NCBI GenBank assembly: GCA_944392675.1
Contig: CALXXK010000002.1
Coordinates: 1 to 35,765, forward strand
Reading direction: 5' to 3'
DNA: 35,765 bases
Origin: an uncultured Clostridia bacterium
GTDB taxonomy: Bacteria > Bacillota > Clostridia > TANB77 > CAG-508
The notes beneath the pieces were generated by a model that did no database searches, was not told where the DNA came from, and saw nothing but the letters and a program-made list of their open reading frames with translations. Numbering within the stretch: position 1 is the first letter of the stretch; each line of letters opens with the position of its first letter. Below, in pieces: positions 1 through 35,765 of the stretch. The position numbers and the translations under genes are program-made.

Positions 1-821
1 ACATATTCGATTAAATCTTCTGATTTTCCTAATCTTTGTAATATTAGTTTTACTATTTGTATATTTCTTCTTTCATTGTGTCCGCCAATATTGTATCTTT
101 CTCCTGCTCTTCCATTATGGAATACTAAATCTATTGCTTCACAGTGGTCTTCTACATATAACCAATCTCTTATATTTTTTCCTGTTCCATATACTGGTAG
201 CTTTTCGTCTTTTAATGCTAATTTAATCATATGTGGAATCAATTTTTCATTATGTTGATATGGTCCATAGTTGTTTGAACAATTTGTTACATTTATATTC
301 ATTTTATATGTTTCTTTATATGCAAGAGCAATTAAATCTGAACTTGCTTTTGATGATGAATATGGGCTACTTGGTTTTATTGGTGAAGTTTCTGTAAAAT
401 ATCCTTCTTCTCCTAGTGAACCATATACTTCATCTGTTGATATATGTACAAATTTATTAGAACTTCCTTCTCCCCATTTTTGTTTGGCTGTTTCTAGTAA
501 AGTATGTGTTCCAATTACATTTGTTTGTGTAAATATAAATGGATTCTTTATACTATTGTCTACATGAGATTCTGCTGCAAAGTGAATTACACCATTTATA
601 TCATATTTATCGAAAATATCTTTCATTTTTTCAAAGTCACATATATCTGCTTGGATAAATGTTATTTTATCTTGCACCTTCTTTAAATTTGCTAAATTTC
701 CTGCATATGTTAATTTGTCTACAACTATTATATTGTAGTCTGGATGTTTGTTTACAAAGTATTCTGCAAAATTTGCTCCTATAAACCCTGCTGCTCCTGT
801 TACTAAAATATTGTTTTTCAT
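1..821 (-). CDS. rfbB: dTDP-glucose 4,6-dehydratase (RmlB), N-terminal ~273 codons; the C-terminus runs off the window edge
   Basis: Absent from the ORF track because it is open at the window edge. My translation from the ATG at 821 gives MKNNILVTGAAGFIGANF...HISTDEVYG...PYSSSKASSDL...NIRDWLYVEDH. This shows the GxxGxxG Rossmann motif and the YxxxK catalytic motif of extended-SDR dehydratases. An AAAGGA RBS lies upstream. Confidence 0.9.
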   Translation of the reverse strand, partial: MKNNILVTGAAGFIGANFAEYFVNKHPDYNIIVVDKLTYAGNLANLKKVQDKITFIQADICDFEKMKDIFDKYDINGVIHFAAESHVDNSIKNPFIFTQTNVIGTHTLLETAKQKWGEGSSNKFVHISTDEVYGSLGEEGYFTETSPIKPSSPYSSSKASSDLIALAYKETYKMNINVTNCSNNYGPYQHNEKLIPHMIKLALKDEKLPVYGTGKNIRDWLYVEDHCEAIDLVFHNGRAGERYNIGGHNERRNIQIVKLILQRLGKSEDLIEY

Positions 822-855
822 TTTTACTATCAATCCTTTCTTAAGGTTAGTCCCT

Positions 856-1629
856 TTACTTTAATTTTCTATTTATATATTCTATTGACATTTTAGCTAT
901 TTCATCTATTTTTTCTTTTGTGTATTTGTCTTGACAATTTAATCTTTTTACAAATTTATTAATATAATCATTTTCTTTTATTATTCTCAGACTTTCATCA
1001 AATTCCAATGCAAATATATGTGCAATTATTGCAACCATTATATCCATATCATTTTTAGCTTTATCATATTCTAATAATCTTTCTTCTTTAAAGCTTTCAT
1101 AAAAATATGGTGTTAATACTTCTTTTGATATATCTTCACTTCCAAATTTTCCAAAGTCTTCAATTTTTTGTTCTAGTAAGCCTCTAAATATATCTATATT
1201 ATCAGCATCTCTTATAATTTTAGTATGTAATAGTTCTTGTTCTGTTAATCCTTTTTCAATACGTAATTTATTATGATTTTCTATTGCTTTATATATTATT
1301 GCATCATATTTATCATCTTTTATATATTTTCTGATATGTTTGTCTGCATATAAAACTTCTAATCCTTTGCTTGCATGGTCTATAGTTTCTTTGTCATTAA
1401 AACTATTATATAATCTAACTTGCTCAAATCTTCCTATATCATGTAATAAGCCTATTAATTCTGCTAAATTTTGTTCTTCATTATTTAAACCTAAATTTTT
1501 TGCTATCATTTTTGAATTTTCAGCAACATGATATGTATGTATAATTTTTAGATTAATTCTTCCATTTTTAATATCATAATTTGATACATATTGTTTAAAC
1601 ACTTCTTTTGCCTTTAATATTTCAATCAT
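856..1629 (-). CDS. HD-domain metal-dependent phosphohydrolase (257 aa)
   Basis: The LLHDIGRFEQ and IIRDADNIDIF motifs are the H..HD..D signature of the HD superfamily. I chose the start at MIEILKAK (ATG at 1629), which is preceded by AAAGGAGAAAC. The longer ORF-track version (to 1809) has a basic, junk-like N-terminus and overlaps rfbC. Confidence 0.75.
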   Translation of the reverse strand: MIEILKAKEVFKQYVSNYDIKNGRINLKIIHTYHVAENSKMIAKNLGLNNEEQNLAELIGLLHDIGRFEQVRLYNSFNDKETIDHASKGLEVLYADKHIRKYIKDDKYDAIIYKAIENHNKLRIEKGLTEQELLHTKIIRDADNIDIFRGLLEQKIEDFGKFGSEDISKEVLTPYFYESFKEERLLEYDKAKNDMDIMVAIIAHIFALEFDESLRIIKENDYINKFVKRLNCQDKYTKEKIDEIAKMSIEYINRKLK

Positions 1630-1641
1630 GTTTCTCCTTTT

Positions 1642-1672
1642 TGTCATTTTGGGGACTGTCCCCAAAATGACA
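1642..1672 (-). promoter_or_regulatory. Perfect palindrome and predicted strong RNA hairpin between the rfbC stop and the HD-gene RBS
   Basis: TGTCATTTTGGGGAC-T-GTCCCCAAAATGACA has 15-nt arms that are exact reverse complements. It starts 2 nt after the rfbC stop codon and ends 4 nt before the AGGAG of the HD gene RBS. No U-tract follows it on the transcribed (minus) strand. Confidence 0.6.
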
Positions 1673-1673
1673 A

Positions 1674-2252
1674 TTATAAATTTTTGAATAAGTCTGTGTT
1701 TTTTAGTTCTGCTAGTGTTGGCCATTTTCCGTCTTTTTCTGATGTTAGTATTTCTTCTGCTTTTAATCCTTCCATTGGCCATTTTATTCCAACTTCTGGA
1801 TCGTCCCATTTTAGTCCACCTTCTGCATTTGGATTGTATACATCATCACATTTATATGTGAATTCTGCTTCGTCTGATAAAACTAAAAATCCATGTGCAA
1901 ATCCTCTTGGTATCATGAACATTTTTTTATTTTCTTCTGTTAGTATGACTCCTTCCCATTTTCCATATGTTTTACTTCCTGGTCTTAAGTCTACTGCAAC
2001 GTCAAATACTTCTCCTCTTATACATCTTACAAGTTTTGCTTGTGTGTTTTCTTTTTGGAAGTGTAAACCTCTTAATACTCCTTTTTTTGATTTTGATTGG
2101 TTGTCTTGTACAAAGTTGTAGTTTAAACCTATTTCTTCAAAATCTTTTTGTGCATATGTTTCCATGAAGTATCCTCTGTTATCTCCAAAAACCGTTGGTT
2201 CTATTACATATACACCATCAATACTTGTCTCTATTTTTTTGAATTGTCCCAT
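1674..2252 (-). CDS. rfbC: dTDP-4-dehydrorhamnose 3,5-epimerase (RmlC)
   Basis: The protein has a 192-aa cupin fold. DNRGYFMETY, GLHFQ, KLVRCIRGEVFDVAVDLR and IPRGFAHGF are classic RmlC motifs. RBS is GAAAGGAA. Confidence 0.93.
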   Translation of the reverse strand: MGQFKKIETSIDGVYVIEPTVFGDNRGYFMETYAQKDFEEIGLNYNFVQDNQSKSKKGVLRGLHFQKENTQAKLVRCIRGEVFDVAVDLRPGSKTYGKWEGVILTEENKKMFMIPRGFAHGFLVLSDEAEFTYKCDDVYNPNAEGGLKWDDPEVGIKWPMEGLKAEEILTSEKDGKWPTLAELKNTDLFKNL

Positions 2253-2269
2253 TTTTAATTCATTCCTTT

Positions 2270-3031
2270 CTATTTTATTAATTCTATGATACTTTCAAAA
2301 ATTTCATCTTCTGTTAATTCTTTATTTATATTTTCAGTTACAAAGATAATTTTATCATCTTCATATTCAAAATACTCATATGTTTGAGTACTATCTAAGT
2401 CTTCAAATGGATTTTTTACAATTTCTCCAGTTACAGGGTCTACCATATAACAGGTTCCAGATATTGAAATTATAGTTAGTTTATTTGAATTAACAATTTC
2501 TTCAAGAGTTGCATCTATTTCAGTTTCATTATCTTTTTTATTTACTTGTAAAAATCCATCGTCATTTACTGAATATTCATTGTTTAATAATTCTGTATTA
2601 TTTAAATAATTTATAATACTTTCTTGGCTTGTTTTATCTATCCAAATTCCATTTTCTTTAGGATAATTTTCTTCAAAACAACTATCTATTTCTGAAAAAT
2701 TTGGAATATCATTTTTTATAATTCCTGCAAATGCTACTTTATAATTAATTTCTGGCTTTACTACCACGGCTTTTCTGCCATCATATTCTGTTTGTATTTC
2801 ATAAATTTCATCTGGTCCTGTTATTTTATATTCTTCTTTTAATTCATCTAAGTCTGCTTGCTCATCATACATTATGGAATCATTTTTAAATTCTTCAAAT
2901 GTTTTTTCTTGATTATTACTTTTTTCTTGCTCTTCTTTTTGATTTTTCCAATTTATTATAAAAAATAATCCTATTATTAAAATTATTAATGCTATTATAC
3001 ATATACTTATAATTATTTTCTTTTTATTCAT
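2270..3031 (-). CDS. Hypothetical membrane-anchored acidic protein (253 aa); no family recognised
   Basis: An N-terminal hydrophobic anchor (IIISICIIALIILIIGLFFII) is followed by a D/E-rich soluble domain. The start lies 4 nt after the stop of the upstream ChW-M14 gene, and its GAGAGG RBS sits inside the last codons of that gene. Confidence 0.6.
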   Translation of the reverse strand: MNKKKIIISICIIALIILIIGLFFIINWKNQKEEQEKSNNQEKTFEEFKNDSIMYDEQADLDELKEEYKITGPDEIYEIQTEYDGRKAVVVKPEINYKVAFAGIIKNDIPNFSEIDSCFEENYPKENGIWIDKTSQESIINYLNNTELLNNEYSVNDDGFLQVNKKDNETEIDATLEEIVNSNKLTIISISGTCYMVDPVTGEIVKNPFEDLDSTQTYEYFEYEDDKIIFVTENINKELTEDEIFESIIELIK

Positions 3032-3035
3032 ATTG

Positions 3036-6000
3036 CTATACCTCTCTTAGCATTTGTAATGTTGCATATATATATAAATCAGATAATCCCATACTATTTA
3101 AGTGTTCTGGGCTGTTTGCTTTTGGTAATTCCACTAAAGTTGCTTTTGCTCCTAAATTTTGCCTTGCCCAAGATACTATATATTGATTTCCATATACACC
3201 ATAATTTCTAGTGTCACATGTTGGGATATATGCTTTGTAATATTTTGCAATTTGTTCATTTCCTATTAATTGATTTTCCCATCCATGTAAATCAACTACT
3301 ACTGTTTGTCCTGAAGTAGATTTATGTGATAGCATAAAATCTCTTAATGCTGATGCTTCATAAGCTTGAAATCCAGCTGTACCATTATAATTTCTTGAAT
3401 CTGTATATCTTGTATATGAATTTCCAGTTTGCCAAGATCTGTTTATATCAATTCCTCTTCCTGCTTGACTATATAAGGTAAGTCTTCCTGGTCCGTTATT
3501 TGTATATCCCATTCTTCTTCCATCTGGATTAACTTCTGGGAATATATATATAGTCCATTTATCAGCTATTGCTTTATCTTGCATAGCAATTAATTTATTA
3601 TAAAGATTATCTGCTATGCATGTTAAAATAAATCCATCTGCTGCCCATGAATCTTCAAACCCATGTACACAAAACGTTGCAAAAAATACATTTGGTCCAC
3701 TTCCATATTTATAATATCTAAGTGAAGTACCACCAGCAACTCCATGTATTGCTGCACCACTGTATCCATATTCTCCTGTTCCGTATTCTATCTTATTTAT
3801 AATATTTATTGTTGAAGATAATTCTTGTAATTTTCTATTATCACTTGACCAGATTTCTACTTTTATTGTGTGATTTCCTAAAGATTGTTTTGAAAAATCA
3901 AAATTTAGAGAAAAACCTGGGTATGGATTTGTTATATCTCCACCATATCCTTTTACACTATTTAGTACATCTGTCCTTACAACTCTAGATACATTACCTT
4001 GCTCTGCTCCATCAAAAAATACTTTAATAGTTAAATTTGGAACATTAGACATAACCCATCCTTTTATTTGTCCATTTGTGTTATGAATTGAACCTTTTGT
4101 ATCTATAAAAGCTGTAGTTTTCTCTGTGTTTGATTTTTTAACTATTTTAATTTGTATTGCTTCTATTCTTTTTGATTCTTCTGTTGTACCTGCATATTCA
4201 CCATCTGAACACCATTCTTGCCATCCTACATCTTGTACATATGCTCTGTATTCAATAGAATATTCATCTGTATTTTCTAATTTTATTCTTATAGCCTCTA
4301 TTCTTTTTGATTGGTTTGTTGTTCCTGCTATTTCTCCTTCATCTTTCCAAGGTTGCCATCCTACTTCTCCTACATGTGCTTGATATTTTACTTTTACCCC
4401 TTCTGGTAAATTTGCTATTTCTATTTTTATTGCTTCTAATCTTTTAGATTGTTCTGTCGTTCCTGAAGTTTCTCCATTCTTTTTTATGGACTGCCATCCA
4501 ACATCTTGTACATGTGATTGATATTTTACTATTAATGTATCTTTATCTAGTTTTAGACTACTTTGTTTTGTAGCTATTATATTTCCTTGATTATCAACCA
4601 ATTTTAATTCTATATTATACGTATTTGTTTCTAAATTTGTTGTATCTATTTTTATATTAAATCGTGGCTGTGTATTATTGCTTTCTATTCCATATCCTTT
4701 TGTATTTGTTACTAAATTATTATCTTCACTATATGTTATTTCAGATTGGATTTTTTCTCCATTTAGATATGTTTCTAGACTTGTATTTGGATTATTTGCC
4801 ATTTTCCATCCATTTATTTCTATTCCATCTGAATCAAATATAGTATTTGTTAAATCTGTATCTATATTTATTGTTCCTTTTATTTGCTTTTCTACTATTC
4901 TAATTTGTATTGCTTCTATTCTTTTTGATTGGCCTTCTGTTCCTGAAATCTCTCCATCTTCACACCAATCTTGCCAGCCTACATCTTGTACATGCGTTCT
5001 ATATTGTATAGAATATTTATCTGTATTTTCTAATTTGATTCTTATAGCTTCTAATCTTAAACCTTGCCCCTCTGTTCCTGCTATTTCTCCTTCATTTTTC
5101 CATGTTTGCCATCCTACTTTTCCTACATGTACTTGGTATTTTAATTCTATTCCTTTAGGTAAATTTGATACATTAATTTTTATTGCTTCTAATCTTTTAG
5201 ATTGATCTGTTGTACCGGAAATTTCTTCATTTTTTTTCATAGCTTGCCATCCAATATCTTGTACATGTGATTGATATTGTACTATTAATGTATCTTTATC
5301 TAATTTCAAACTACTTTGTTTTGTAGCTATTATATTTCCTTGGTTATCAACTAATTTTAATTCTAAATTATATGTGTTTGTTTCCAAATTTGTTGTATCT
5401 ATTTTTATATTAAATCGTGGCTGTGCATTATTAGTTTCTATTCCATATCCTTTTGTTTTTGTTACTAAATTATCATCTGCATTATATGTTATTTTAGATT
5501 GTATTTTTTCTCCATTTAAATATGTTTCTATACTTGTATTTGGAACATTTGCTAATTTCCATCCATTTATTTCTATTCCATCTGAATTAAATGTAGTATT
5601 TTCTAAATTTGTATCTAAATTTATTGTTCCTTTTACTTGTTTTTCTACAATTTTAATTTGTATTGCTTCTATTCTTTTTGATTGGCCTTCTGTTCCTGCT
5701 GTTTCTCCATCTTCGCACCAATTTTGCCAACCTATATCTTGTACATGTACTCTATATTGCACAGAATATTTGTCTGTATTTTCTAATTTTATTCTTATTG
5801 CTTCTATTCTTTTTGATTGGCCTTCTGTGCCTGCTATTTCTCCTTCATTTTTCCATGGTTGCCATCCTATTTCACCTACATGTGTTTGATATTTTACTTT
5901 TACACCTTCTGGTAGATTAGATGTTACTATTTTTATAGCTTCTATTCTTTTTGATTGTCCTTCTGTTCCTGAAACTGCTCCATTATTTTTTGGTGCTTGC

Positions 6001-6137
6001 CATCCTACATCTTGTACGTGTGATTGATATTGTATATTTATTGCATTAGTATTATCATCTAATGCATAGCTAATTTTAAAACTTAATAATATTAAAATTG
6101 CTAATAATATACAAATAATAATTCTTTTTTTATACAT
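3036..6137 (-). CDS. Secreted ChW-repeat protein with a C-terminal M14 zinc carboxypeptidase-like domain (probable peptidoglycan stem-peptide hydrolase)
   Basis: It begins with the signal peptide MYKKRIIICILLAILILLSFKISYA. Three ~251-aa modules follow, each with 3 ChW repeats (Y[QR]xHVQD[IV]GWQ...AGT[ET]GQSKRIEAI) plus a ~105-aa beta-rich domain. The C-terminus carries HGFE, EVNPDGR, INRSW and DLHGW, matching the M14 HxxE...H zinc site. Confidence 0.8.
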   Translation of the reverse strand: MYKKRIIICILLAILILLSFKISYALDDNTNAINIQYQSHVQDVGWQAPKNNGAVSGTEGQSKRIEAIKIVTSNLPEGVKVKYQTHVGEIGWQPWKNEGEIAGTEGQSKRIEAIRIKLENTDKYSVQYRVHVQDIGWQNWCEDGETAGTEGQSKRIEAIQIKIVEKQVKGTINLDTNLENTTFNSDGIEINGWKLANVPNTSIETYLNGEKIQSKITYNADDNLVTKTKGYGIETNNAQPRFNIKIDTTNLETNTYNLELKLVDNQGNIIATKQSSLKLDKDTLIVQYQSHVQDIGWQAMKKNEEISGTTDQSKRLEAIKINVSNLPKGIELKYQVHVGKVGWQTWKNEGEIAGTEGQGLRLEAIRIKLENTDKYSIQYRTHVQDVGWQDWCEDGEISGTEGQSKRIEAIQIRIVEKQIKGTINIDTDLTNTIFDSDGIEINGWKMANNPNTSLETYLNGEKIQSEITYSEDNNLVTNTKGYGIESNNTQPRFNIKIDTTNLETNTYNIELKLVDNQGNIIATKQSSLKLDKDTLIVKYQSHVQDVGWQSIKKNGETSGTTEQSKRLEAIKIEIANLPEGVKVKYQAHVGEVGWQPWKDEGEIAGTTNQSKRIEAIRIKLENTDEYSIEYRAYVQDVGWQEWCSDGEYAGTTEESKRIEAIQIKIVKKSNTEKTTAFIDTKGSIHNTNGQIKGWVMSNVPNLTIKVFFDGAEQGNVSRVVRTDVLNSVKGYGGDITNPYPGFSLNFDFSKQSLGNHTIKVEIWSSDNRKLQELSSTINIINKIEYGTGEYGYSGAAIHGVAGGTSLRYYKYGSGPNVFFATFCVHGFEDSWAADGFILTCIADNLYNKLIAMQDKAIADKWTIYIFPEVNPDGRRMGYTNNGPGRLTLYSQAGRGIDINRSWQTGNSYTRYTDSRNYNGTAGFQAYEASALRDFMLSHKSTSGQTVVVDLHGWENQLIGNEQIAKYYKAYIPTCDTRNYGVYGNQYIVSWARQNLGAKATLVELPKANSPEHLNSMGLSDLYIYATLQMLREV
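4526..6032 (-). repeat. Two tandem 753-bp coding modules (251 aa each), with a third more diverged copy continuing to about 3770
   Basis: The protein period is exactly 251 aa (QYQSH at residues 36-40 and 287-291). The DNA landmark ctactttgttttgtagctat recurs at 5311 and 4558, an offset of 753 bp. By eye the two copies are roughly 90 percent identical. Confidence 0.8.
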
Positions 6138-6262: not shown

Positions 6263-7153
6263 TTACTCTTCTCCAAATTTATTTTCTGCTAAATCTTTTA
6301 AATATTTTCCATAGTCTGTTTTCATGAATTTTTGTGCTAGTTCTAATAATTGGTTAGAGTCTATCCATCCGTTTTTATATGCAATTTCTTCTGGGCAACA
6401 TACTTGTAATCCTTGTCTTTTTTCTATTGTTTGAACAAAACTTGCTGTTTCTAGTAATGCATCATGTGTTCCTGTATCAAACCATGTCATTCCTCTTCCT
6501 AATTTTTCAACTTTTAATTTTCCACGTTTCATATATTCATCATTTACAGATGTTATCTCTAATTCTCCTCTTGCTGAAGGCTTAACACTTTTTGCTATTT
6601 CAATAACTTCATTTGTATAGAAATATAATCCTGGTACTGCATAGTTTGATTTTGGATTTTCTGGTTTTTCTTCTATTGATATTGCTTTACCTTCTTTGTC
6701 TATTTCTACAACTCCATATGCTCTTGGGTCTTTTACATAATATCCAAAAATTGTTGCTTCATCTTCTCTGTTGTTTGCTGCAATAACTTTTTCTGCAAAA
6801 TGCTCTCCATAAAACATATTATCTCCTAATATCATTGCAACATTATCTTGTCCTATAAATTCTTCTCCTATTATAAAAGCTTCTGCTAATCCATTTGGCT
6901 TTTCTTGAACTTTATATTCAAAGTTCATTCCCCATTGTTTTCCATCACCTAAAAGTTCTCTAAATGTTACTATATCTCTAGGTGTTGATATTATTAATAC
7001 ATCTTTTATTCCAGCTTGCATTAAAACTGATAATGGGTAATATATCATTGGTTTATCATATACAGGCATTATTTGTTTTGATATTGCAAGTGTTAATGGA
7101 TACAATCTTGTTCCACTTCCTCCTGCTAAAATTATTCCCTTTCTATTTTTCAT
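6263..7153 (-). CDS. rfbA: Glucose-1-phosphate thymidylyltransferase (RmlA)
   Basis: [16 protein letters not shown] (the nucleotidyltransferase G-rich loop), [15 protein letters not shown] and [17 protein letters not shown] are present. I preferred the start at MKNRKG (ATG at 7153) with GGATGAG 4 nt upstream. The ORF-track alternative is 7162. Confidence 0.92.
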
Positions 7154-7225
7154 TTTTCTCATCCTTTCATATTTAGTTCTTCATAAATGAAGTTTAACAA
7201 CTCCAAAATTGTAATTATTTTTAAA

Positions 7226-8089
7226 TTATAATTTTCCTTCTTCTTTCAAATATCTTTTCAATCCATCTTCCCATTCTGGAACTTCTATTCCTTGTGCTTT
7301 TAATTTTTCTTTTGACATTTGAGAATTTTTAGGTCTTTTTGCTTGAGTAATTTTCATCATTTCTATATATTTTTCTGTTGAAACTGGATTTACTTGACAA
7401 ATAATTCCTGCATATTCAAAAATTGCTTTTGTAAAATCATACCAAGTTGTAAATCCTTCATTTGTTGCATGATATACTCCATAAGGTATTTTCTTTTCTA
7501 TTGCTTGTCCTATAAAGTTTGCTAAATCTTCTGCATATGTAGGCGAACCATGTTGATCTGATACTACATTTAACTCATCTTTTGTTTCTCCCAATTTTAA
7601 CATAGTTCTTACAAAATTATTTCCATCTCCATATAACCATGCCGTTCTAAATATATAATATTTATCTGTATTTTGTTCTATATATTCTTCTCCATGTAAT
7701 TTTGTTATTCCATATGCTGTAACTGGTTTTTTAGGATCATCTTCTTTATATTCTTTTGAAATATCTAAATCTCCTCCAAATACATAATCTGTACTTATAT
7801 GTACTAATATACTATTATTTTCTTTTGCTGCTTTTGCTAAATTTTTTGGTCCATCTGCATTTATCTTTTCTACTATTTCTCCTGCTGTTTCTGCTTTATC
7901 TACTGCTGTATATGCTGCACAGTTTATTATATATTCTGGTTTTACATTTTTTACGTATTCTGATACTGCTTTTTCATCTGTTATATCTAAGTCTGCAACA
8001 TCTGTGCATATTAACTCATTTCCTTTTTCTAGTCTTTTTCTTACTGATTTTGCAAGCATTCCATTTGCTCCTGTAATTAATATTTTCAT
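7226..8089 (-). CDS. rfbD: dTDP-4-dehydrorhamnose reductase (RmlD)
   Basis: MKILITGANGMLA is the Rossmann motif. STDYVFGG, YGITKLHGE (YxxxK) and the 287-aa length fit RmlD. A strong AGGAGGT RBS is present. Confidence 0.9.
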   Translation of the reverse strand: MKILITGANGMLAKSVRKRLEKGNELICTDVADLDITDEKAVSEYVKNVKPEYIINCAAYTAVDKAETAGEIVEKINADGPKNLAKAAKENNSILVHISTDYVFGGDLDISKEYKEDDPKKPVTAYGITKLHGEEYIEQNTDKYYIFRTAWLYGDGNNFVRTMLKLGETKDELNVVSDQHGSPTYAEDLANFIGQAIEKKIPYGVYHATNEGFTTWYDFTKAIFEYAGIICQVNPVSTEKYIEMMKITQAKRPKNSQMSKEKLKAQGIEVPEWEDGLKRYLKEEGKL

Positions 8090-8141
8090 TATTACACTTA
8101 CCTCCTAATTTCTTTTTTCATTTACATTAAAATACGTCTAT

Positions 8142-8170
8142 ATAATATCATTTAAATGAAAAAAGTACAA
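8142..8170 (-). promoter_or_regulatory. Possible sigma-A promoter for rfbD-rfbA (TTGTAC-17 nt-TATTAT)
   Basis: On the minus strand the -35-like TTGTAC (8165..8170) overlaps the terminator stem. A 17-nt spacer follows, then the -10-like TATTAT (8142..8147). Such matches arise easily by chance in AT-rich DNA. Confidence 0.3.
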
Positions 8171-8189
8171 GGGTTTCTTGTACTTTTTT
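8159..8189 (-). terminator. Rho-independent terminator downstream of the ChW-GH73 gene
   Basis: The minus strand reads AAAAAAGTACAAG-AAACC-CTTGTACTTTTTT, a 13-bp stem with a 5-nt loop that ends in a U-run. It starts 6 nt after the stop codon. It is the only clear intrinsic terminator in the window. Confidence 0.65.
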
Positions 8190-12070: not shown

Positions 12071-12105
12071 GTTTAATATCATTCCTTTCAAAAGGTACAT
12101 ATATT

Positions 12106-21047: not shown

Positions 21048-21111
21048 TTGTATACACATTCCTTCCATAAATTCAGTAATTTATATAATTTTAACACATT
21101 CAATTTTGCAA

Positions 21112-26170: not shown

Positions 26171-26419
26171 GTTACAATTTACACCTAAAATTTTTATATC
26201 AACCTAAAGTTATATTATAATATTTTATGAAATTAAATGTGCAAATGGAGGAATATTACAAATTCTTACATTATCAAATAGGAGGATCTCAAATCTTGCT
26301 TTGAGAGGTGCCTGTTTTAGAATGTTAGAATTTGTATATTCCGCAATGCCAGCCATTTAATGAATAAAATATTATAATATAACTTTAGGTTATTTTTGAA
26401 AATAATTGTAAATTGTAAC
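26171..26419. repeat. Nested imperfect palindrome of ~250 bp (MITE/ERIC-like element, long RNA stem-loop or invertible segment) in the largest intergenic gap
   Basis: The perfect 28-bp inverted repeat 26201..26228 (AACCTAAAGTTATATTATAATATTTTAT) is the reverse complement of 26364..26391. An outer perfect 13-bp pair lies at 26171..26183 and 26407..26419. Inner pairs are TTAAATG/CATTTAA, GGAATATTACAAATTCT/AGAATTTGTATATTCC, and the apex hairpin CTCAAA-TCTTGC-TTTGAG, which is centred exactly at 26296. Confidence 0.85.
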
Positions 26420-28625: not shown

Positions 28626-30422
28626 TTAATTTCCCTTAATTATTTTTTTAATCTTTTTATAAATTCTACTAGAAAGTTTTTGTTCTATCATTTTTCTATA
28701 TTGTTCATACTCTTTTTGTATTTGTTCTTTTTCTTTTTGTAGATTATCTATTGCTCCTTGTTGTGCTTTGTTTCTAATATTTAGATTTATTACTTCTTGT
28801 ATTGTGCTATCTATATCAAAATATTTATTTTGACTATAAAAAGTCCACATTTTTTCATCTCTTACTTTTTCTTGCATTTTATTATCTAACTTTTCAAATA
28901 ATATTCTGTATTTTTGTAAATCATATTTTTCAAACCATTCTTCAATATTTATAAATCTTCTTAAAGAAATTGTATATAAAATTGAACGATATAATATATA
29001 TTCTGTTGGTAAATCATCTTCAGCCCATTCTTGGTCGAAAAAGTATAATTCTCCATCAATATAAAAGCAGTTTTTAAATGTCATATCCCATAATCCTCGT
29101 TTTTGAAAATGAAGGTTTTTTATTATCTCTTTATCTTCTGCTTCTATTCCATATTTTCCAAAAACAGTTTTTTCATAATTTTGTTCTTGATATGAATTAA
29201 TGTTTAAAGTTTGAATATATTGATTCATAACATTTTCTACTTGTTCTAAATTATTCTCTTCTAAAGCTTTAGTTATTACATTGTTTAATAATAATTCTTG
29301 ATTTATATATTTACTTTGAATTTTTCCATCTATTTCATAATCAACTGTTTTGATGTCTTTATTTTGTAATTGCCTTATATTTTCTTTTATGTTTTCATAA
29401 TGTTCATTCGCTTGTTGGTTTACTACTTCTTTTTCTACATATTCATCTGCTATTTTTGTAATAAGCCTATATTCTTGTTTTCTCATATTATTAAACGATA
29501 TATATTTATATTTAATTGGTTCTAATTTTTTACTTGCTTCTACTAAGAATGAATTTGTAAAAAATGTAAACATTTCTTCATTATTCTTTAGTATTTCTCT
29601 AAATACATCTATTTCATTCATTATAATTGTTGAATTTTCTAGATAATATGGATTGTATTTATCTACACTATTATATTTTGGCAATTGCTTGTCTGTAAAT
29701 ATTACATTTGGTAATTTATAATCTGGAAGAGGATAATAAAAATTTGTATTATATCCTATTTCTTTTAGTTTTCTTTCTAATCTTGATTTTGTAAATGTTT
29801 CTATCTTTTCTGGTTCATTATTGTATCCTATAATACTTTCGAACTTTTTATTTAATATATTTTCTGGGTTTCCTACGAAATATCTTAAGCCAAATTTATT
29901 ATCTACAGCTATTAAAAATTTTCCATTTTCTGATAAAAACTTTTCTAACTTTTGTATCATTTGGTTTAATTTCATATCTTGCCCCATTATTTCTTTTACT
30001 CTAGGTACACTTCCTATTAAAATAATATAATCAAATTTCTTCTCTAGTTGTATTTTAGAAAAGTTACCAACAATTATTTCTAAATTTTGTGCATCTTTAT
30101 ATCTTTTACTAATTGTCTTTGCCTTTTCTAAATTGGGTTCAATTGTTGTAACTTCTTTGCATTTGTTTATAAACACTTCTGTTAAATTTCCTAAATTTCC
30201 TCCTATTTCTAGTACTGTATCTTTTTCTTTAAATGGATACCAATTTAATATGTTTTGGCTACTACTAGATAAATGATAAATTTCTTGAGCTGTTATTTTT
30301 TCTGAAAATTGATTTTCATAGTCTCTATTTTCATATTGTTCAATATATTTATCTATGATTTCTTGTTCACTATTAGAAATTTTTTCTTCTTTTTTTTCAT
30401 AAAATTCTGTATTGAATATCAA
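28626..30422 (-). CDS. Class I SAM-dependent methyltransferase fused to a kinase-like domain and a C-terminal coiled coil (WbdD-like architecture)
   Basis: Motif I is VLEIGGNLGNL, followed by IEPN and DYIILIGS. Later GLWDMTFKNCFYIDGELYFFDQEW resembles a Dx4N catalytic loop plus a D-x-E metal loop. The tail is heptad-like and K/E/Q-rich (NLQKEKEQIQKEYEQYRKMIEQK). The start codon is TTG, with AAAGGGGA 7 nt upstream. Confidence 0.65.
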   Translation of the reverse strand: MIFNTEFYEKKEEKISNSEQEIIDKYIEQYENRDYENQFSEKITAQEIYHLSSSSQNILNWYPFKEKDTVLEIGGNLGNLTEVFINKCKEVTTIEPNLEKAKTISKRYKDAQNLEIIVGNFSKIQLEKKFDYIILIGSVPRVKEIMGQDMKLNQMIQKLEKFLSENGKFLIAVDNKFGLRYFVGNPENILNKKFESIIGYNNEPEKIETFTKSRLERKLKEIGYNTNFYYPLPDYKLPNVIFTDKQLPKYNSVDKYNPYYLENSTIIMNEIDVFREILKNNEEMFTFFTNSFLVEASKKLEPIKYKYISFNNMRKQEYRLITKIADEYVEKEVVNQQANEHYENIKENIRQLQNKDIKTVDYEIDGKIQSKYINQELLLNNVITKALEENNLEQVENVMNQYIQTLNINSYQEQNYEKTVFGKYGIEAEDKEIIKNLHFQKRGLWDMTFKNCFYIDGELYFFDQEWAEDDLPTEYILYRSILYTISLRRFINIEEWFEKYDLQKYRILFEKLDNKMQEKVRDEKMWTFYSQNKYFDIDSTIQEVINLNIRNKAQQGAIDNLQKEKEQIQKEYEQYRKMIEQKLSSRIYKKIKKIIKGN

Positions 30423-30440
30423 AATAACATCCCCTTTCTT

Positions 30441-31355
30441 TTACCAGACTTTAATAGTAATATCTCCATCTTTTTCTATTATATTTTGTTTTACTCCTAA
30501 GTTTTCTATCCATTTTCTAGTTGTTTTTGTTAACCATGGTCCTGTGTCTTCACCTTGTCCTGCATCATTTGCCCATAACCAGTCTGGTGTCGGCCACATA
30601 CATATTTTAGGTTCTACTATTTTATAAAATTCTTCATTTACTCCATTTTGACCGTGATGTGCCATTTGCACTATATCTGCTTTTAATTTTTCTTTTGAAT
30701 TGTTTTCTATTAATTTTTTTTGGCTTTCTTCTGCTGTATCTCCTAAAAATAGAATTTTTTTATTATTAATTTGCATTTTTATTACCATACTAGAATTATT
30801 AACAGGTTTATTATCTATTTCAGGATTTTTTATACCTAATATTTCACAATTTATATTATCTATTTGTATATTTTGGTGTAATGAAACTTCTTGAACATTT
30901 TCTTTTATTCTATCATTTTCAATAGCATTAAAAAAATCTTTAAATTCTTGTGCTCTTTGAGGTTCTTTTTCTATGTACCATTCTAAATTATTTAATGTTA
31001 CATATATTTTGTCTATTTGAATATCAGTATTGTTTATAATATCAATAATAGCACTTGCATGATCTTGATGAGGATGCGTGATAAACCATGCATCTACTTT
31101 GTTTTTATCATTTTTAATATAATTTATTAAATTTTCAGTATCTTCATGTGTTCCTCCATCAATTATAATTGTTTTATCATTTTTCGTTTTTATAATATAT
31201 CCCATCATTTGGCTATGTCCATTGTTTTTTAATTGTGTTAATTGTATAGCATTTGTATATGGTATATATATTAATAAAATAATTAAAAATATTGCTATTA
31301 GTATTATAATACTTATATATTTTTTTAGATTCTTATTTGATGTTTTATTTTTCAT
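30441..31355 (-). CDS. Membrane-anchored or secreted MBL-fold metallo-hydrolase (ComEC C-terminal domain-like)
   Basis: It has the N-terminal anchor YISIIILIAIFLIILLIYI. THPHQDH (HxHxDH), LGDT and MAHHG are present. The start overlaps the Wzt-like gene by 11 nt. RBS is GGAGA. Confidence 0.75.
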   Translation of the reverse strand: MKNKTSNKNLKKYISIIILIAIFLIILLIYIPYTNAIQLTQLKNNGHSQMMGYIIKTKNDKTIIIDGGTHEDTENLINYIKNDKNKVDAWFITHPHQDHASAIIDIINNTDIQIDKIYVTLNNLEWYIEKEPQRAQEFKDFFNAIENDRIKENVQEVSLHQNIQIDNINCEILGIKNPEIDNKPVNNSSMVIKMQINNKKILFLGDTAEESQKKLIENNSKEKLKADIVQMAHHGQNGVNEEFYKIVEPKICMWPTPDWLWANDAGQGEDTGPWLTKTTRKWIENLGVKQNIIEKDGDITIKVW

Positions 31356-32700
31356 TTAAATCTCCATTTACTTTTTCTATTTTTATGTCTGAATCTATTC
31401 TCATTAGTCCTACAGTGTCTTTCATAGATAATACTTCTATTAATAAAGCATCATATTTTCTATTTAATACTTCTAATTCTCCTCTATGGTTGAAATGTGT
31501 ACAACTAAATGATAAAGTATATTTTCCTGGAGCTACATTTATTACTTGTTTAAATTCAACTGTTACTATATCTCCTTTTTTGAAATCACCTGTTGCTATT
31601 TTTTCTATTAATGTGTTTGTTCCTGCCATTTCTAAACCTTTAAAATCTTTTACAGTCATAGTAAAAATTGGTTCTTTAACATCTTTTTTAAACATTATTT
31701 TTGATTTTAGAACTACTTTTTTATCATTTTCTACTACAGAAATATAATTTCCATCTTCGTCAAAGACTCCATAGTCAATAACTTCTGCGTCTCCATTACC
31801 ATAGTCAATTACATTTGGATTTTCATTAAAGTGCGTTTTCCATAAACTGTCTTTGTTATTATCTTCTTTTTTGAAATTAGGATTTTTCTTCATTAATTCA
31901 TCATCTGTTAAAATTCCTTCTTTACTTTGTTTTTCATCAAGACCTACTATTATTTTTTTGTATTTTTCTACTCCTTCTTTTACACCGCCATCAAATATCT
32001 TTCTTCCTGAATCTATAATTATTGTTCTTGTACAGTTTCTTAATACATCTGTTATACTATGTGTAACAAATAAAATTGTTTTTCCTTTTTCTTTAAATTG
32101 TTGGAACTTTTTAAAACATTTTAACTGGAATGCCATGTCTCCTACCGACAAAACTTCATCTACTATTAATATGTCTGGGTCAACGTTTATTGCACATGCA
32201 AATGCTAATCTTGCAAACATTCCTGATGAATATGTTTTTACTGGTTGATGTAAATGATCTCCTATATCTGCAAAATCAATAATTTCTTGTTCTTTTTCTT
32301 TTATTTCCTTATTTGTTAACCCCATTACTTGTCCATGTTGATAAATATTTTCTATTCCCGTTAACTCTGGATTAAATGCTGTCCCTAATTCTAATAATGA
32401 ACTTATTTTTCCATTTGCCTTTATTGTTCCAGCTGTTGGGGTAACAACACCTGTTATCATTTTTAGTAATGTAGATTTTCCAGCTCCATTTTTTCCTAAT
32501 ATTCCTAGGACTTCTCCTCTTCTTACTTCTAAATTAAAATCATGCATAGCTTCAAATACTCCATGCCTTTGAACAGCTGGAAATATTGTTTCTATAATTC
32601 TATCTTTTTTTCTATGAAACATTTTATATGATTTAGAAAGATGTTCTATTTTTAAAGCTATATCTTTTTCTTCTATCTTTTCTTTATTTTCTTCGTTCAT
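31345..32700 (-). CDS. Polysaccharide ABC exporter ATP-binding protein (Wzt/TagH/RgpD-like) with a C-terminal carbohydrate-binding-type extension
   Basis: Walker A is GKNGAGKST, the signature is YSSGMFARLAF and Walker B is ILIVDEVLSVGD. A ~190-aa beta-rich C-terminal extension resembles Wzt_C. I chose the start at MNEENK (ATG at 32700) with AAAGGAGAA 8 nt upstream. The ORF-track start at 32721 is a GTG inside that RBS region. Confidence 0.85.
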   Translation of the reverse strand: MNEENKEKIEEKDIALKIEHLSKSYKMFHRKKDRIIETIFPAVQRHGVFEAMHDFNLEVRRGEVLGILGKNGAGKSTLLKMITGVVTPTAGTIKANGKISSLLELGTAFNPELTGIENIYQHGQVMGLTNKEIKEKEQEIIDFADIGDHLHQPVKTYSSGMFARLAFACAINVDPDILIVDEVLSVGDMAFQLKCFKKFQQFKEKGKTILFVTHSITDVLRNCTRTIIIDSGRKIFDGGVKEGVEKYKKIIVGLDEKQSKEGILTDDELMKKNPNFKKEDNNKDSLWKTHFNENPNVIDYGNGDAEVIDYGVFDEDGNYISVVENDKKVVLKSKIMFKKDVKEPIFTMTVKDFKGLEMAGTNTLIEKIATGDFKKGDIVTVEFKQVINVAPGKYTLSFSCTHFNHRGELEVLNRKYDALLIEVLSMKDTVGLMRIDSDIKIEKVNGDLNEK

Positions 32701-32746
32701 AGTGTTTTTTCTCCTTTTCACTTATTGTTTGATTATATTTGTTTCA

Positions 32747-33538
32747 TTACAATACATCTGCAAAATCTTTTTTATTCTTTTTGAATATATAATTTCCCCA
32801 AACAAATATGCCTATTGTGATTACCCAGAATATTATTGTGTATATACCATGTCCTTGTGTTACAATATTTCCTCCCATAAAGCAATTCCTAAATCCAGTT
32901 ACTAGATACGTGAAAGGTATGCATTCTAATACCTTTAGTATTGTGTTGTGACCTGCAAGCATTGATAAATCCCATACTATTGGTGTAAACCAGAAAAATA
33001 ATTGCATAACTATTCCTAATAAGTTAATAAAATCTGGTACTAATGTTGCTATTGCTGACGTAAACCTTGTTACAGCAATTAAAAAACAATAAGCTGCGAA
33101 TATCATATATATAACCATCAAAATATTAGGTATAAAATGATATACTATACAAACAGCTGATGCTATAATAAATAAAAATATTGCAACAAATGAATTTGAT
33201 AATAAAGAAATAATTGGTATTGTATTAACTGGAAATACCACTTTTTTTACTAAATAACTATATGCTCTAATTGAACCACTTGCACCTATTATACCATCAT
33301 TTAGGCACATCCACATTGCCATTCCTGGCATAAACCATACTACATAAGGTGCTCCTTCTGGACCAGATTGTTTGAATATAAATTGGAAAACAATTACATA
33401 CATGATCATAAAAATAAATGGTTGTAAGAATCCCCATATACTGCCTAAACTTGTACTGGCAAATCTATTTTTAAAATCATTTTTTCCTAAACTCCATATC
33501 ATTTTTCTATTTTTTATTATATCTTTTATAAATCCCAT
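32747..33538 (-). CDS. Polysaccharide ABC exporter permease (ABC-2 type; Wzm/TagG/RgpC-like)
   Basis: The 263-aa protein has about 6 TM segments. Its N-terminus, LGKNDFKNRFASTSLGSIWGFLQP, is typical of ABC-2 glycan exporters. The GGAGG RBS sits 7 nt upstream, and the gene is adjacent to the ATPase gene. Confidence 0.85.
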   Translation of the reverse strand: MGFIKDIIKNRKMIWSLGKNDFKNRFASTSLGSIWGFLQPFIFMIMYVIVFQFIFKQSGPEGAPYVVWFMPGMAMWMCLNDGIIGASGSIRAYSYLVKKVVFPVNTIPIISLLSNSFVAIFLFIIASAVCIVYHFIPNILMVIYMIFAAYCFLIAVTRFTSAIATLVPDFINLLGIVMQLFFWFTPIVWDLSMLAGHNTILKVLECIPFTYLVTGFRNCFMGGNIVTQGHGIYTIIFWVITIGIFVWGNYIFKKNKKDFADVL

Positions 33539-33551
33539 GTTTTTGCCTCCG

Positions 33552-34544
33552 TCATCTTTTCCTCATTATTTTTAATATTAAATGTCTGATTTTAAATAAA
33601 CCTTTACCAAGTAATGGTAAATTCATAATTATAAAATTTTCTATATAATACATAGCAGTTTCTGTTTTATATAATTCATGAAATATATTCCAATTTCTAA
33701 AATTAAAGTTTTTCTTTGTTTGTATCATTTTATAATAATTATAAGCTTTTTTATTTAGTTCTTGTATTGCCTCTGGAAATTTTTCATTATGCTTTACATA
33801 TGTGCCAAATACTCCTAATTTTACATTTATAAATAATTCTCTTACCTGTTTTAATTGTGTGAATTTATGAGATATTTTGTCTGTTCCTACTTGATTATTT
33901 CCATGTTGTCTATATTTTATATATCTTTCTGGCATATATGCTAATTTTCCAGAACATCCTATTATTATTCCTATCCAATGGTCATGTATTAAATATTTTG
34001 AATCTACTGGAATCGGTATTATTTTTTCTATCCATTCTTTTTTTGATATAGTTGTACATCCTGTTACACAATTATATAAATAATTTACTTTGTAACTATT
34101 TATATATTTTTTTATCTTTTTATCTAATTTCATAAATTTATTAAATGATGGATATATTGTTTTTAAGTTTTCATCAACAACTTCAAGGTCACCAAAAACT
34201 AAATCAGCATTTTCATTTTTTATTTTTTCTACTGATTTTTCTATCTTTTCAGGTAACCAAATATCATCTTGATCTGATAACATATATAAGTCATTTTTTA
34301 CTTGATTCAATAAATATTCAAAATTCTTTACATATCCTAAGTTTTTTTCTTGGTAATGAATTTCTACTTTTGGATTATTTTCATATTGTTTCAATACTTC
34401 ACGTGTATTGTCTTTAGAACAATCATCTGATATTACTAATCTTATATTAGAATATGTTTGATTAAGTATACTTTCTATTTGTTCTTTTACATATTTTTCT
34501 CCATTATATGTTGCAAGTAAAACATCAATTTGGCTTTTTTCCAT
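33552..34544 (-). CDS. GT2 glycosyltransferase, RgpB/WbbL-type (probable rhamnosyltransferase)
   Basis: IDVLLATYNGEKYVKEQIESILNQTYSNIRLVISDDCSKDNT and SDQDDIW are present. I chose the start at MEKSQ (ATG at 34544) with GGGTGA 8 nt upstream. The ORF-track alternative is 34562. Confidence 0.78.
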   Translation of the reverse strand: MEKSQIDVLLATYNGEKYVKEQIESILNQTYSNIRLVISDDCSKDNTREVLKQYENNPKVEIHYQEKNLGYVKNFEYLLNQVKNDLYMLSDQDDIWLPEKIEKSVEKIKNENADLVFGDLEVVDENLKTIYPSFNKFMKLDKKIKKYINSYKVNYLYNCVTGCTTISKKEWIEKIIPIPVDSKYLIHDHWIGIIIGCSGKLAYMPERYIKYRQHGNNQVGTDKISHKFTQLKQVRELFINVKLGVFGTYVKHNEKFPEAIQELNKKAYNYYKMIQTKKNFNFRNWNIFHELYKTETAMYYIENFIIMNLPLLGKGLFKIRHLILKIMRKR

Positions 34545-34632
34545 AAAATAATTCACCCACATTTTTTATGTTCTATTCTCGCTTATTCTACATTTAAATT
34601 GCTATTTTGTCAATATCTATTCATCCTTGTTA

Positions 34633-35628
34633 TTATTTATAAACTAGGTAACCTAAAATAGGAAAATGAAAAATTACAAATTCCTTTACCATCTTTTTTA
34701 ACAAATTTTTACCTGCTAAAAATTTAAAATATTTAATAAAATGAAAATTTATATATTTAGATTGTTCTAACTTTTCGTAATATTTAATCAAATTTTCTAA
34801 AAATTGTTTATTTTTTTCATCCTTACTATAAGAAATACACATTTTAGCACCATCTAAATATGCCATATCAATGACTTTTTCTTTTCTATATTTTAAATAC
34901 GAACCATAACTTTTTCCATTCTTTTCTTTCCATTTAGCTAAATTTTGAGCCAAACTTCTTCCTCCAAAAACATTTGAATTGTGTAATCTATATTGTAATA
35001 AAGGTTCTTCTACATAAGCTATCCCTTTATTTTCATTTGCAATAAATGCCGCTAACCAATCATGTGCCATAACATTTTCTTTGAATGGAAGCATTCTTTC
35101 TTTAACTTCTTTTGTAAATATCTGAGAACATCCTATTCCTATACAACGTGATATTGCTAAATGACTTTTATTATTTATAAGTGGTACATTTTTGTATTTA
35201 AAATAATTTTCATGTATAACTTTTCCATTTTCATCTATTTGTTTTGCATTACAATATACTAAATCTACATTTTTTTCTTTTAATTTTTTTAGACTTACCT
35301 CTACTTTATTTTCATACCAAATATCATCATGGTCTGAAAACATAATATAGTTCGATTTTGATTTTTGTAATAAAAATTCAAAATTTTTTATATATCCAAT
35401 ATTTTTTTCCTGAAAAAATATTATTATTCTGTTGTCTCTTTTTTGATATTCTTCTAAGATTTCTTTAATTTGGCTAGATGTTTCTGAATAATCATCACTT
35501 ATTATTAATTTTATCTCTTTATATGTTTGATTTAATATACTATCTATTTGTTCTTTTAAATATATTGGGTTTGTATTATATGTTGCTAATAAAATATCTA
35601 CTGTTTCTTTCAATATTGTTTCCCCCAT
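34633..35628 (-). CDS. GT2 glycosyltransferase, RgpB/WbbL-type (probable rhamnosyltransferase); first gene after a promoter
   Basis: VDILLATYNTNPIYLKEQIDSILNQTYKEIKLIISDDYS and SDHDDIW are present. It is a paralogue of the genes at 33552 and 19040. Confidence 0.78.
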   Translation of the reverse strand: MGETILKETVDILLATYNTNPIYLKEQIDSILNQTYKEIKLIISDDYSETSSQIKEILEEYQKRDNRIIIFFQEKNIGYIKNFEFLLQKSKSNYIMFSDHDDIWYENKVEVSLKKLKEKNVDLVYCNAKQIDENGKVIHENYFKYKNVPLINNKSHLAISRCIGIGCSQIFTKEVKERMLPFKENVMAHDWLAAFIANENKGIAYVEEPLLQYRLHNSNVFGGRSLAQNLAKWKEKNGKSYGSYLKYRKEKVIDMAYLDGAKMCISYSKDEKNKQFLENLIKYYEKLEQSKYINFHFIKYFKFLAGKNLLKKMVKEFVIFHFPILGYLVYK

Positions 35629-35651
35629 TCTTTTGCCATTTTAATATAATT

Positions 35652-35680
35652 ATAATACTTATTTTTTTGTATTTTGTCAA
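35652..35680 (-). promoter_or_regulatory. Near-consensus sigma-A promoter (TTGACA-17 nt-TATTAT) reading into the gene cluster
   Basis: On the minus strand there is an exact TTGACA (35675..35680), a 17-nt spacer, then TATTAT (35652..35657) overlapping TATAAT. It lies about 24 nt upstream of the ATG at 35628. Confidence 0.5.
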
Positions 35681-35691
35681 CTTTTTTAAAA

Positions 35692-35743
35692 GGGGACGTT
35701 CCTTCAATCCCTAATTTTCGGGATAATGGGGACGAACCTTCAA
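35692..35743. promoter_or_regulatory. Two 16-nt direct repeats (14/16 identical), 36 bp apart, just upstream of the -35 box; candidate regulator binding sites
   Basis: The repeats are GGGGACGTTCCTTCAA (35692..35707) and GGGGACGAACCTTCAA (35728..35743). They are relatively GC-rich compared with their surroundings. Confidence 0.4.
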
Positions 35744-35765
35744 AAAAGGGATTTGGAAACGGTGC

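Follow-up and report, generated by a model that had tools for sequence, protein, structure and literature searches.

What do ChW repeats bind in the bacterial cell wall, and can a locus that encodes ChW proteins together with a wall polymer point to the ligand? ChW repeats are widespread wall-associated repeats, found in Clostridia, other Firmicutes, Actinobacteria and phage lysins, and according to a 2018 review their ligand "remains unknown". The question is raised by a stretch of 35,765 nucleotides from an uncultured Clostridia bacterium (contig CALXXK010000002.1, positions 1 to 35,765; hereafter the window), in which the genes of four secreted ChW proteins lie among genes for a rhamnose-type cell wall polysaccharide. 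A preliminary description of the window, made from the sequence alone, proposed that this polysaccharide is the wall receptor of the ChW repeats. We find that the ChW genes are a retained part of the polysaccharide cluster in related species, and that a link between ChW genes and wall-glycopolymer genes recurs in unrelated lineages. The role of the polymer as receptor is strengthened by these comparisons and is still tentative.

Four ChW proteins are embedded in a rhamnose polysaccharide locus

To define the gene content, translated open reading frames (ORFs) were scanned with Pfam. Every substantial ORF of the window lies on the minus strand, which yields 24 genes that are indeed co-directional, as had been described. 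The full dTDP-rhamnose pathway is present (rmlA, B, C and D; E 1e-74 to 5e-97), together with further parts of a rhamnose locus of the ABC-transporter type: Wzm and Wzt with its Wzt_C domain, eight GT2, a WsaF-like domain and a GacI/GacJ-like pair. The window is very probably a complete locus for a rhamnose-rich cell wall polysaccharide of the Rgp/Gac/Wps type, and the gene content bears out the cluster type named in the preliminary description. This places a family of rhamnose-rich wall polysaccharides in a lineage where it was not described before. The closest genomes are metagenome-assembled genomes (MAGs) of "uncultured Clostridia", and proteins identical to those of the window were found on contigs from human and animal gut metagenomes. 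The GC content of the window is ~27%.

Both Pfam and gene order confirmed that the four ChW proteins are embedded in this cluster. Three of their genes lie, as proposed, between a gene taken for a Wzx-like flippase and rmlD; the identity of that first gene is less secure than its position. The fourth, with the gene of a 253-amino acid (aa) orphan protein, splits rmlA from rmlC. The features of this part of the window are listed below with their Pfam matches.

15333 to 17723, minus strand: secreted protein with nine ChW repeats (three triplets) and a GH25 muramidase domain (ChW, E 2e-131; GH25, E 2e-34)
12106 to 15243, minus strand: secreted CotH protein with nine ChW repeats (three triplets) (CotH, E 3e-46; ChW, E 9e-137)
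8195 to 12100, minus strand: secreted protein with 14-15 ChW repeats (five triplets) and a GH73-type glucosaminidase C-terminus (ChW, E 3e-163)
8159 to 8189, minus strand: intrinsic terminator, then the promoter-like box of the rml operon (terminator scan)
7226 to 8089, minus strand: rmlD, dTDP-4-dehydrorhamnose reductase (RmlD_sub_bind, E 5e-97)
6263 to 7162, minus strand: rmlA, glucose-1-phosphate thymidylyltransferase (NTP_transferase, E 1e-74)
3036 to 6137, minus strand: secreted protein in which a ChW triplet plus a ~110-aa domain occurs three times, followed by an M14-like peptidase (Pfam, repeat map and a hidden Markov model of the 110-aa domain)
2270 to 3031, minus strand: 253-aa orphan protein, presumably membrane-anchored, without a Pfam match
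1674 to 2252, minus strand: rmlC, dTDP-4-dehydrorhamnose 3,5-epimerase (E 2e-76)
1 to 821, minus strand: rmlB, dTDP-glucose 4,6-dehydratase, partial (GDP_Man_Dehyd/Epimerase), running off the window

The ChW triplet behaves as a regular unit

The four secreted proteins carry 42 ChW repeats arranged as 14 regular triplets, with a spacing of 45-46 aa and with W, G, Y and A columns that are invariant in the repeat alignment. All four score above the gathering score of the Pfam family (PF07538; E 2e-131 to 3e-163, 9-14 matched stretches each). Their N-termini resemble signal peptides, and a reading of the four sequences found neither LPXTG motifs nor membrane anchors. Sequence searches of the PDB matched only the catalytic domains of the ChW proteins: the GH25 domain matches known muramidases, and residues 1057-1280 of the 1301-aa protein match the staphylococcal glucosaminidases SagB/AtlE. 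AlphaFold2 modelled the triplet as a compact all-beta unit (pLDDT 95.8). With this model, Foldseek retrieved from BFVD five phage lysins with a single C-terminal triplet (TM 0.72-0.83); as these lysins use one triplet, one triplet behaves as one binding module. When 50,697 phage records were searched by tblastn with the ChW triplet, only two unannotated gut phage contigs were matched, and no host pattern was therefore drawn.

Three further observations concern the architecture of these proteins. A 420-bp sequence is repeated in tandem 4.8 times in the GH73 gene (9115-11112), triplets 2 and 3 of its product are identical, and a public contig (L002) is broken there; the repeats and the identical triplets indicate a recent duplication, with a risk of misassembly or copy-number variation. 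Low-complexity linkers rich in Asn, Thr and Ser follow the signal peptides of the GH25 and CotH proteins (e.g. window 17331-17444), and could be O-glycosylation sites or a mere product of the 27% GC. One relative encodes the CotH and GH25 ChW proteins as a single 1431-aa fusion of the order ChW-CotH-ChW-GH25 (L091, 13262-17557), which suggests that the CotH and GH25 activities work together.

ChW genes are retained in the cluster of related species

An alignment of ChW triplets was scanned against one genome per GTDB species. The 75 ChW loci that were obtained, 43 from the clade of the window and 32 from other taxa, were compared with the window proteins and their neighbourhoods were examined. 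Within the clade, recognisable cluster or rml genes accompany the ChW genes at 36 of the 43 loci, and at least two rml genes lie within 10 kb at 15 of the 43. Most of the other seven are contig fragments of the cluster, adjoin spoIIIA at its upstream edge, or have further GT2/GtrA/PMT_2 genes next to them. The arrangement recurs in dozens of species, which is far beyond chance. Sampling of clusters through the GT2 gene at 20010-21047, ignoring ChW, gave a similar picture, with ChW genes after the Wzx-like gene in three of four cases. In relatives the cluster is a discrete unit between housekeeping genes, bordered by spoIIIA/pta/ackA upstream and by prs/trpS-like genes downstream.

The preliminary description had read the interleaving of ChW and polysaccharide genes as a sign of co-selection and co-expression. 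The first half holds, as the ChW genes form an integral part of the cluster and have been kept in it during evolution; co-expression largely does not. A true functional link between the polymer and the enzymes embedded in its locus is, in our view, probable.

A link to wall-glycopolymer genes recurs in unrelated lineages

Outside the clade, rml genes come within 10 kb of a ChW gene at four of the 32 loci, compared with ~0.3 expected under random placement. The Poisson probability of at least four such loci is 3e-4, and 0.02 when the expectation is raised to 1. In the Bacillota genome Bin_63, rmlDABC is separated by 32 bp from the gene of a ChW/SpoIID protein, which is followed by two LCP genes. 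Three MAGs of Saccharibacteria (candidate phyla radiation; L048, L069 and L079) encode two-triplet ChW proteins beside an LCP ligase gene, and in L048 rmlA/C/B lies 7.5 kb away; ChW is hence not confined to Firmicutes and Actinobacteria. A ChW array lies 3.3 kb from rml in a Coprobacillaceae isolate, and the distance from rml to the ChW gene is 6 kb in C. lentum. The top Pfam families among 143 neighbouring ORFs in non-Clostridium taxa are RmlD/epimerase, NTP_transferase, LytR_cpsA_psr and GT2, with five each, and LCP genes beside ChW were confirmed individually at six loci. C. acetobutylicum, the species in which ChW was named, has RmlD. Combined, these results show that the link of ChW genes to wall-glycopolymer genes is real and recurrent, and that it is not universal.

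An M14 peptidase and an orphan protein form a constant pair within the cluster

The orphan gene begins 4 nt after the M14 gene, and the pair occupies at least three positions, always within the cluster: between rmlA and rmlC (window, L006 and L007), just upstream of rmlD (L010 and L022), and between the first GT2 gene and Wzm (e.g. L014, L026, L050, L053 and L070). As rmlD-A-C-B is contiguous in most relatives, the insertion of the pair between rml genes is specific to the species group of the window. The orphan has 231 homologues, and in all five sampled contexts it follows an M14 peptidase that heads the Wzm/Wzt cluster. It has no match in Pfam and no fold match in the PDB. Its AlphaFold2 model (pLDDT 93) consists of a long N-terminal helix, presumably a membrane anchor, and an alpha/beta domain; the protein may regulate the M14 peptidase or shield the cell from it.

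The M14 protein of the window carries, in alternation with its ChW triplets, a ~110-aa domain with the motif YID..GW.M..R.DV..KGYG..PGF (residues 169-280, 420-531 and 673-779). Pfam gave only faint GbpA_D3 matches for this domain, which may be a second wall-docking module.

The island comprises at least two transcription units

The terminator scan found a sole intergenic site in the window, at 8159-8189, where the preliminary description had placed its one clear terminator. On the coding strand, a GTACAAG/CTTGTAC stem is followed by a T run, a few bases past the stop codon of the third ChW gene and ~70 nt ahead of rmlD. At least 11 related species have the hairpin, followed by a TAAATGATAT(T/G)ATA box (window 8130-8189), immediately ahead of rmlD, irrespective of the preceding gene (L007, L010, L015, L019, L022-L024, L027, L031, L032 and L037). 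This conserved terminator-plus-promoter module implies that the island consists of at least two transcription units, and a single 24-gene operon was rejected. This marks the rml operon as separate and probably strongly expressed. A promoter scan placed a promoter-like site at 35680-35652, at the first GT2 gene. The three ChW genes close the glycosyltransferase unit (gaps of 38, 89 and 5 nt), and only the M14-orphan pair sits within the rml unit. Co-expression of ChW and rml genes, as originally proposed, thus stands for this pair and fails for the other three ChW genes, which lie beyond the conserved terminator.

Is the polymer the ChW ligand?

According to the explanation that we favour, the cell would make the polymer and its docking proteins together, and the repeat modules (the ChW triplets and, in some relatives, the ~110-aa domain found in their place) would have the polymer as their wall receptor or as the gatekeeper of that receptor. 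We put this forward tentatively, at somewhat less than an even chance. Its narrower form, in which the ChW triplets bind the polymer of this locus directly, is possible and a shade more doubtful. The polymer as ChW receptor is a reasonable and unpublished proposal, which the comparative sequence data strengthen and do not establish.

Several lines of evidence are consistent with it. One of the embedded proteins carries CotH, which is not a peptidoglycan hydrolase, and the feature shared by the four is therefore the repeat module and not the type of enzyme. Non-covalent anchors encoded with their polymers are known: in the CWB2 proteins of C. difficile with polysaccharide II (PSII), and in SLH domains with pyruvylated secondary cell wall polymer (SCWP), anchor and polymer are co-encoded and binding was shown experimentally. 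As in these systems, the genes of proteins that share a non-covalent anchor module lie with wall-polymer genes, here in a conserved manner; unlike them, binding is only inferred for ChW, and the enzymes of relatives carry a different repeat module. Among Bacilli, ChW was reported in Lactococcus, Streptococcus and Enterococcus, which are known for rhamnose-rich wall polysaccharides (PMC9574508). Of the analogues shown by experiment, the closest is AtlA, an autolysin of S. mutans that attaches to the polyrhamnose backbone of the wall polysaccharide SCC (bioRxiv 10.1101/2020.06.26.173716). Like one of the window proteins, AtlA is a GH25 enzyme with a repeat domain; this domain binds rhamnan, and side-chain modifications control access. 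In contrast to the window, the AtlA repeats are Bsp-like and atlA lies outside the polysaccharide locus.

Other observations weigh against the polymer as receptor. The Foldseek comparison of the triplet model with the PDB found no relative (best E 0.7, TM <0.35), and so provides neither a lectin-like precedent nor a clue to the ligand. The conserved terminator parts three of the ChW genes from rml. In four of the five contexts sampled for the orphan, its M14 partner is without ChW: those of L087, L088 and L089 have three to six tandem ~110-aa domains in its place, and that of L085 has a different repeat of ~75 aa. Similarly, the GH25 protein embedded in the L093 cluster, which was sampled through GT2 and also holds heptose genes, has seven ~110-aa domains and is devoid of ChW. 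A requirement for ChW on every cluster-embedded enzyme was rejected on the basis of these M14 and GH25 proteins. As M14 and GH25 stay in the cluster without ChW, ChW by itself does not account for their co-location. This allows two readings: the polymer and its docking module may change together, or the enzymes may be bound to the locus by something other than ChW.

The replacement of ChW by the ~110-aa domain in the heptose-containing variant would be an example of a swap of module with polymer. In its most general form, the proposal would then describe ChW triplets as lectin-like modules that dock enzymes on rhamnose-rich wall polysaccharides, encoded as a unit in Clostridia and perhaps in Saccharibacteria and Erysipelotrichia, with the module changing with the polymer. 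We regard this broad form as rather unlikely.

Of the 122 ChW neighbours in free-living Clostridium and soil Clostridiaceae, most are unrelated genes, and the ChW genes of these organisms are dispersed. This, too, speaks against a receptor role, and raises the question of whether the link is specific at all. The genomes of the lineage are small (one relative is a complete chromosome of 1.55 Mb), and small genomes could simply pile envelope genes into one co-directional island, with the ChW proteins present as envelope proteins; dispersal in the larger free-living clostridia fits this explanation. However, the association of ChW with the cluster survives rearrangement within the clade, and it reappears in distant lineages with other gene orders, where rml and LCP genes are among the commonest neighbour families. 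We consider mere crowding of envelope genes to be improbable.

Further evidence against the polymer comes from a phage lysin. In a 2023 study, the lysin of Lactobacillus phage CL1 is described as having a ChW binding domain (CL1-CBD), whose binding rises after secondary polymers are stripped with trichloroacetic acid (TCA). The related Lc-LysBD binds peptidoglycan with an amidated D-Asp (D-Asn) cross-bridge. A Pfam ChW scan of the CL1 lysin gave no match. By eye, its C-terminus contains three ChW-like repeats, and hhalign placed this domain in register with the window triplets over 100 columns (probability 81%, E 1.2e-5). Together, the alignment and the binding data indicate that a remote member of the fold binds peptidoglycan. 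The earlier statement that the binding partner of ChW is undefined agrees with the reviews, which list the ligand as unknown, and it overlooked this domain.

The window triplets might likewise bind peptidoglycan itself, in which case the polymer would not be the ligand, and the enzymes would sit in the locus either for hydrolysis or remodelling to be coordinated with polymer insertion or as enzymes whose access to peptidoglycan is limited by the polymer. In line with this possibility, peptidoglycan is the substrate of three of the four embedded enzymes, and the M14-orphan pair and GH25 are kept in the cluster without ChW. However, the CL1 and Lc-LysBD domains, which resemble the window triplets in their C-terminal triplet of ChW-like repeats, are very divergent from them; the CL1 domain is too distant for the Pfam ChW family, and ligands often change among binding domains of the same fold. 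In addition, the ChW-like anchor of phage AM12 was absent from the peptidoglycan-digest fraction, and the CotH-ChW and SpoIID-ChW proteins, along with ChW beside rml and LCP genes in unrelated lineages, suggest that what is shared is the repeat module. Peptidoglycan as the ligand is, in our estimation, a serious if unlikely alternative; the probability that is left goes to looser links or links of another kind.

Should the polymer prove to be the receptor, a ligand would be named for a widespread family of anchors that have lacked one since 2001, and a third clear case of co-encoded anchor and polymer would be added. Rhamnose-rich wall polysaccharides would extend beyond the ovoid-shaped lactic acid bacteria, and a handle would be available for surface display and lysin targeting in abundant uncultured gut Clostridia. 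Even if the claim about the ligand fails, two findings stand: wall enzymes whose repeat modules can be exchanged are embedded in a conserved manner in a polysaccharide locus, and the M14 peptidase is constantly paired with the orphan.

Proposed pathway of the polysaccharide

The remaining genes of the locus, and a hairpin among them, are listed below with their Pfam matches.

34633 to 35628, minus strand: GT2 glycosyltransferase, first gene of the cluster (Glycos_transf_2, E 6e-24)
33552 to 34562, minus strand: GT2 glycosyltransferase (E 2e-29)
32747 to 33538, minus strand: Wzm, ABC-2 permease of the polysaccharide exporter (ABC2_membrane)
31345 to 32721, minus strand: Wzt, ABC ATPase with a C-terminal Wzt_C carbohydrate-binding domain (ABC_tran; Wzt_C, E 1e-32)
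30441 to 31355, minus strand: membrane-anchored metallo-beta-lactamase-fold (MBL) protein (Lactamase_B; 11-nt overlap with Wzt)
28626 to 30422, minus strand: 598-aa methyltransferase with a long C-terminal extension (methyltransferase domains)
26435 to 28552, minus strand: bifunctional GT2 and WsaF-like (GT4-type) glycosyltransferase (Glycos_transf_2, WsaF_C, Glyco_trans_1_4)
26201 to 26391, minus strand: long imperfect hairpin in a 310-bp gap between two glycosyltransferase genes
24460 to 26124, minus strand: 554-aa GT2 glycosyltransferase
22255 to 24372, minus strand: polytopic membrane protein DUF7657/DUF7654 (E 2e-108)
21539 to 22228, minus strand: 229-aa GacI-like GT2
21112 to 21456, minus strand: 114-aa GacJ-like small membrane protein, DUF2304 (E 4e-25)
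20010 to 21068, minus strand: GT2 glycosyltransferase (likely start 21047)
19040 to 19951, minus strand: GT2 glycosyltransferase
17762 to 18994, minus strand: 410-aa polytopic membrane protein, a probable divergent Wzx/MOP flippase by way of its homologues

In the pathway that we propose, RmlABCD would supply dTDP-rhamnose, and cytoplasmic GT2 and WsaF-like enzymes would assemble a rhamnan on a lipid carrier. The methyltransferase would probably cap the chain, and Wzm/Wzt, with the Wzt_C domain, would export the rhamnan. A short side chain would be added outside the membrane by the GacI/GacJ-like pair, two GT2, the divergent Wzx and the large polytopic protein. The initiating transferase and the LCP ligase would be encoded elsewhere in the genome; Pfam found neither gene in the window or in the flanks of the cluster in relatives.

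Individual assignments differ in strength. NCBIfam matches of the glycosyltransferases were all below the cut-offs and gave no specific name, leaving eight GT2 and one WsaF-like domain. The bifunctional GT2 and WsaF-like enzyme is a candidate for the rhamnan polymerising enzyme. For the 229-aa GT2, the best NCBIfam matches, all below the cut-off, are polyprenyl- or dolichyl-phosphate sugar synthases. Its gene adjoins that of the 114-aa DUF2304 protein in a GacI/GacJ-type arrangement, a pairing that is known along with the four-component side-chain systems GacI/J/K/L and WpsA/B/G/J (PMC9574508); this GT2 is a candidate polyprenyl-phosphate sugar synthase. The 410-aa membrane protein, of the 12-TM type, has no match of its own in Pfam, NCBIfam or the PDB. 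Homologues, including that of L092, give full-length Polysacc_synt matches below the threshold, so that a divergent Wzx/MOP flippase is probable, a plausible but unproven identity. The DUF7657/DUF7654 protein found no relative in the PDB sequence search and is, from the position of its gene only, a candidate side-chain transferase of the GT-C type acting outside the membrane.

Wzt with its Wzt_C domain lies beside the 598-aa methyltransferase, a candidate chain-capping or terminating enzyme, and this suggests capped chains. The two genes are grouped with that of the overlapping MBL protein at 28626-32721. From this grouping, the exporter may recognise a chain with a methyl cap. The MBL protein shares 52-58% identity among relatives, and may, by analogy with pneumococcal Pce, trim a phospho-substituent.

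The same genes allow another use of the polymer. The S-layer glycan system of Geobacillus has WsaE, a WsaF-type rhamnosyltransferase, Wzm/Wzt and rml, and the polymer of the window could similarly be transferred onto proteins, with the Asn/Thr/Ser-rich linkers of the ChW proteins as targets. The WsaF-like domain, the methyltransferase and Wzt_C would suit such a system, as would the low-complexity N-terminal regions on the GH25 and CotH proteins and the large uncharacterised polytopic protein DUF7657. On the other hand, neither Pfam nor NCBIfam detected a Wzy_C/O-oligosaccharyltransferase domain in the window proteins, the GacI/GacJ-like pair indicates side-chain decoration of a wall rhamnan, and low-complexity linkers are expected anyway from a genome of 27% GC. 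Protein glycosylation is a very unlikely role for this locus, and we retain the wall polysaccharide as its product.

Capping has precedents in E. coli O9a (WbdD/Wzt) and in Geobacillus (WsaE/WsaF), where synthesis is ABC-transporter-dependent and a methyltransferase acts together with a carbohydrate-binding domain at the C-terminus of Wzt. The window resembles both in its methyltransferase and Wzt_C, with capping only inferred; unlike them, a kinase domain and an O-oligosaccharyltransferase were not found in the window.

The nearest relatives in overall design are the rgp, gac, cwps and epa loci of streptococci, lactococci and enterococci. The window shares with them rmlABCD, a rhamnan ABC exporter, several GT2, a pair of the GacI/GacJ type, and candidates for a Wzx-type flippase and a polytopic side-chain transferase; as in the streptococcal loci, the cluster does not include genes for the initiating enzyme and the LCP ligase. 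In contrast to these loci, the window comes from Clostridia, a class not mentioned in the review (PMC9574508), has Wzt_C and a large methyltransferase that suggest capped chains, and holds four secreted enzymes that bear repeats.

Other features of the window

The GT2 at 20010 to 21068 is conserved within the clade at 76-97% identity, and rmlB, cut at the end of the window, is full-length in L001. An Rfam scan of the window matched no known RNA. The ~190-nt hairpin at 26201-26391 has a dG of -71.5 kcal/mol and a z of -11.5, is limited to contigs of the same species and is without a match in Rfam; a small inserted element is one possibility, a signal for RNA processing or stability another. The rml region holds one more gene.

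856 to 1629, minus strand: HD-domain protein (Pfam HD; 257 aa in public contigs)

This HD-domain phosphohydrolase gene lies between rmlC and rmlB and is common only to L007 and L031. The mechanically derived HD ORF overlaps rmlC, and public gene calls put the start of the gene at 1629.

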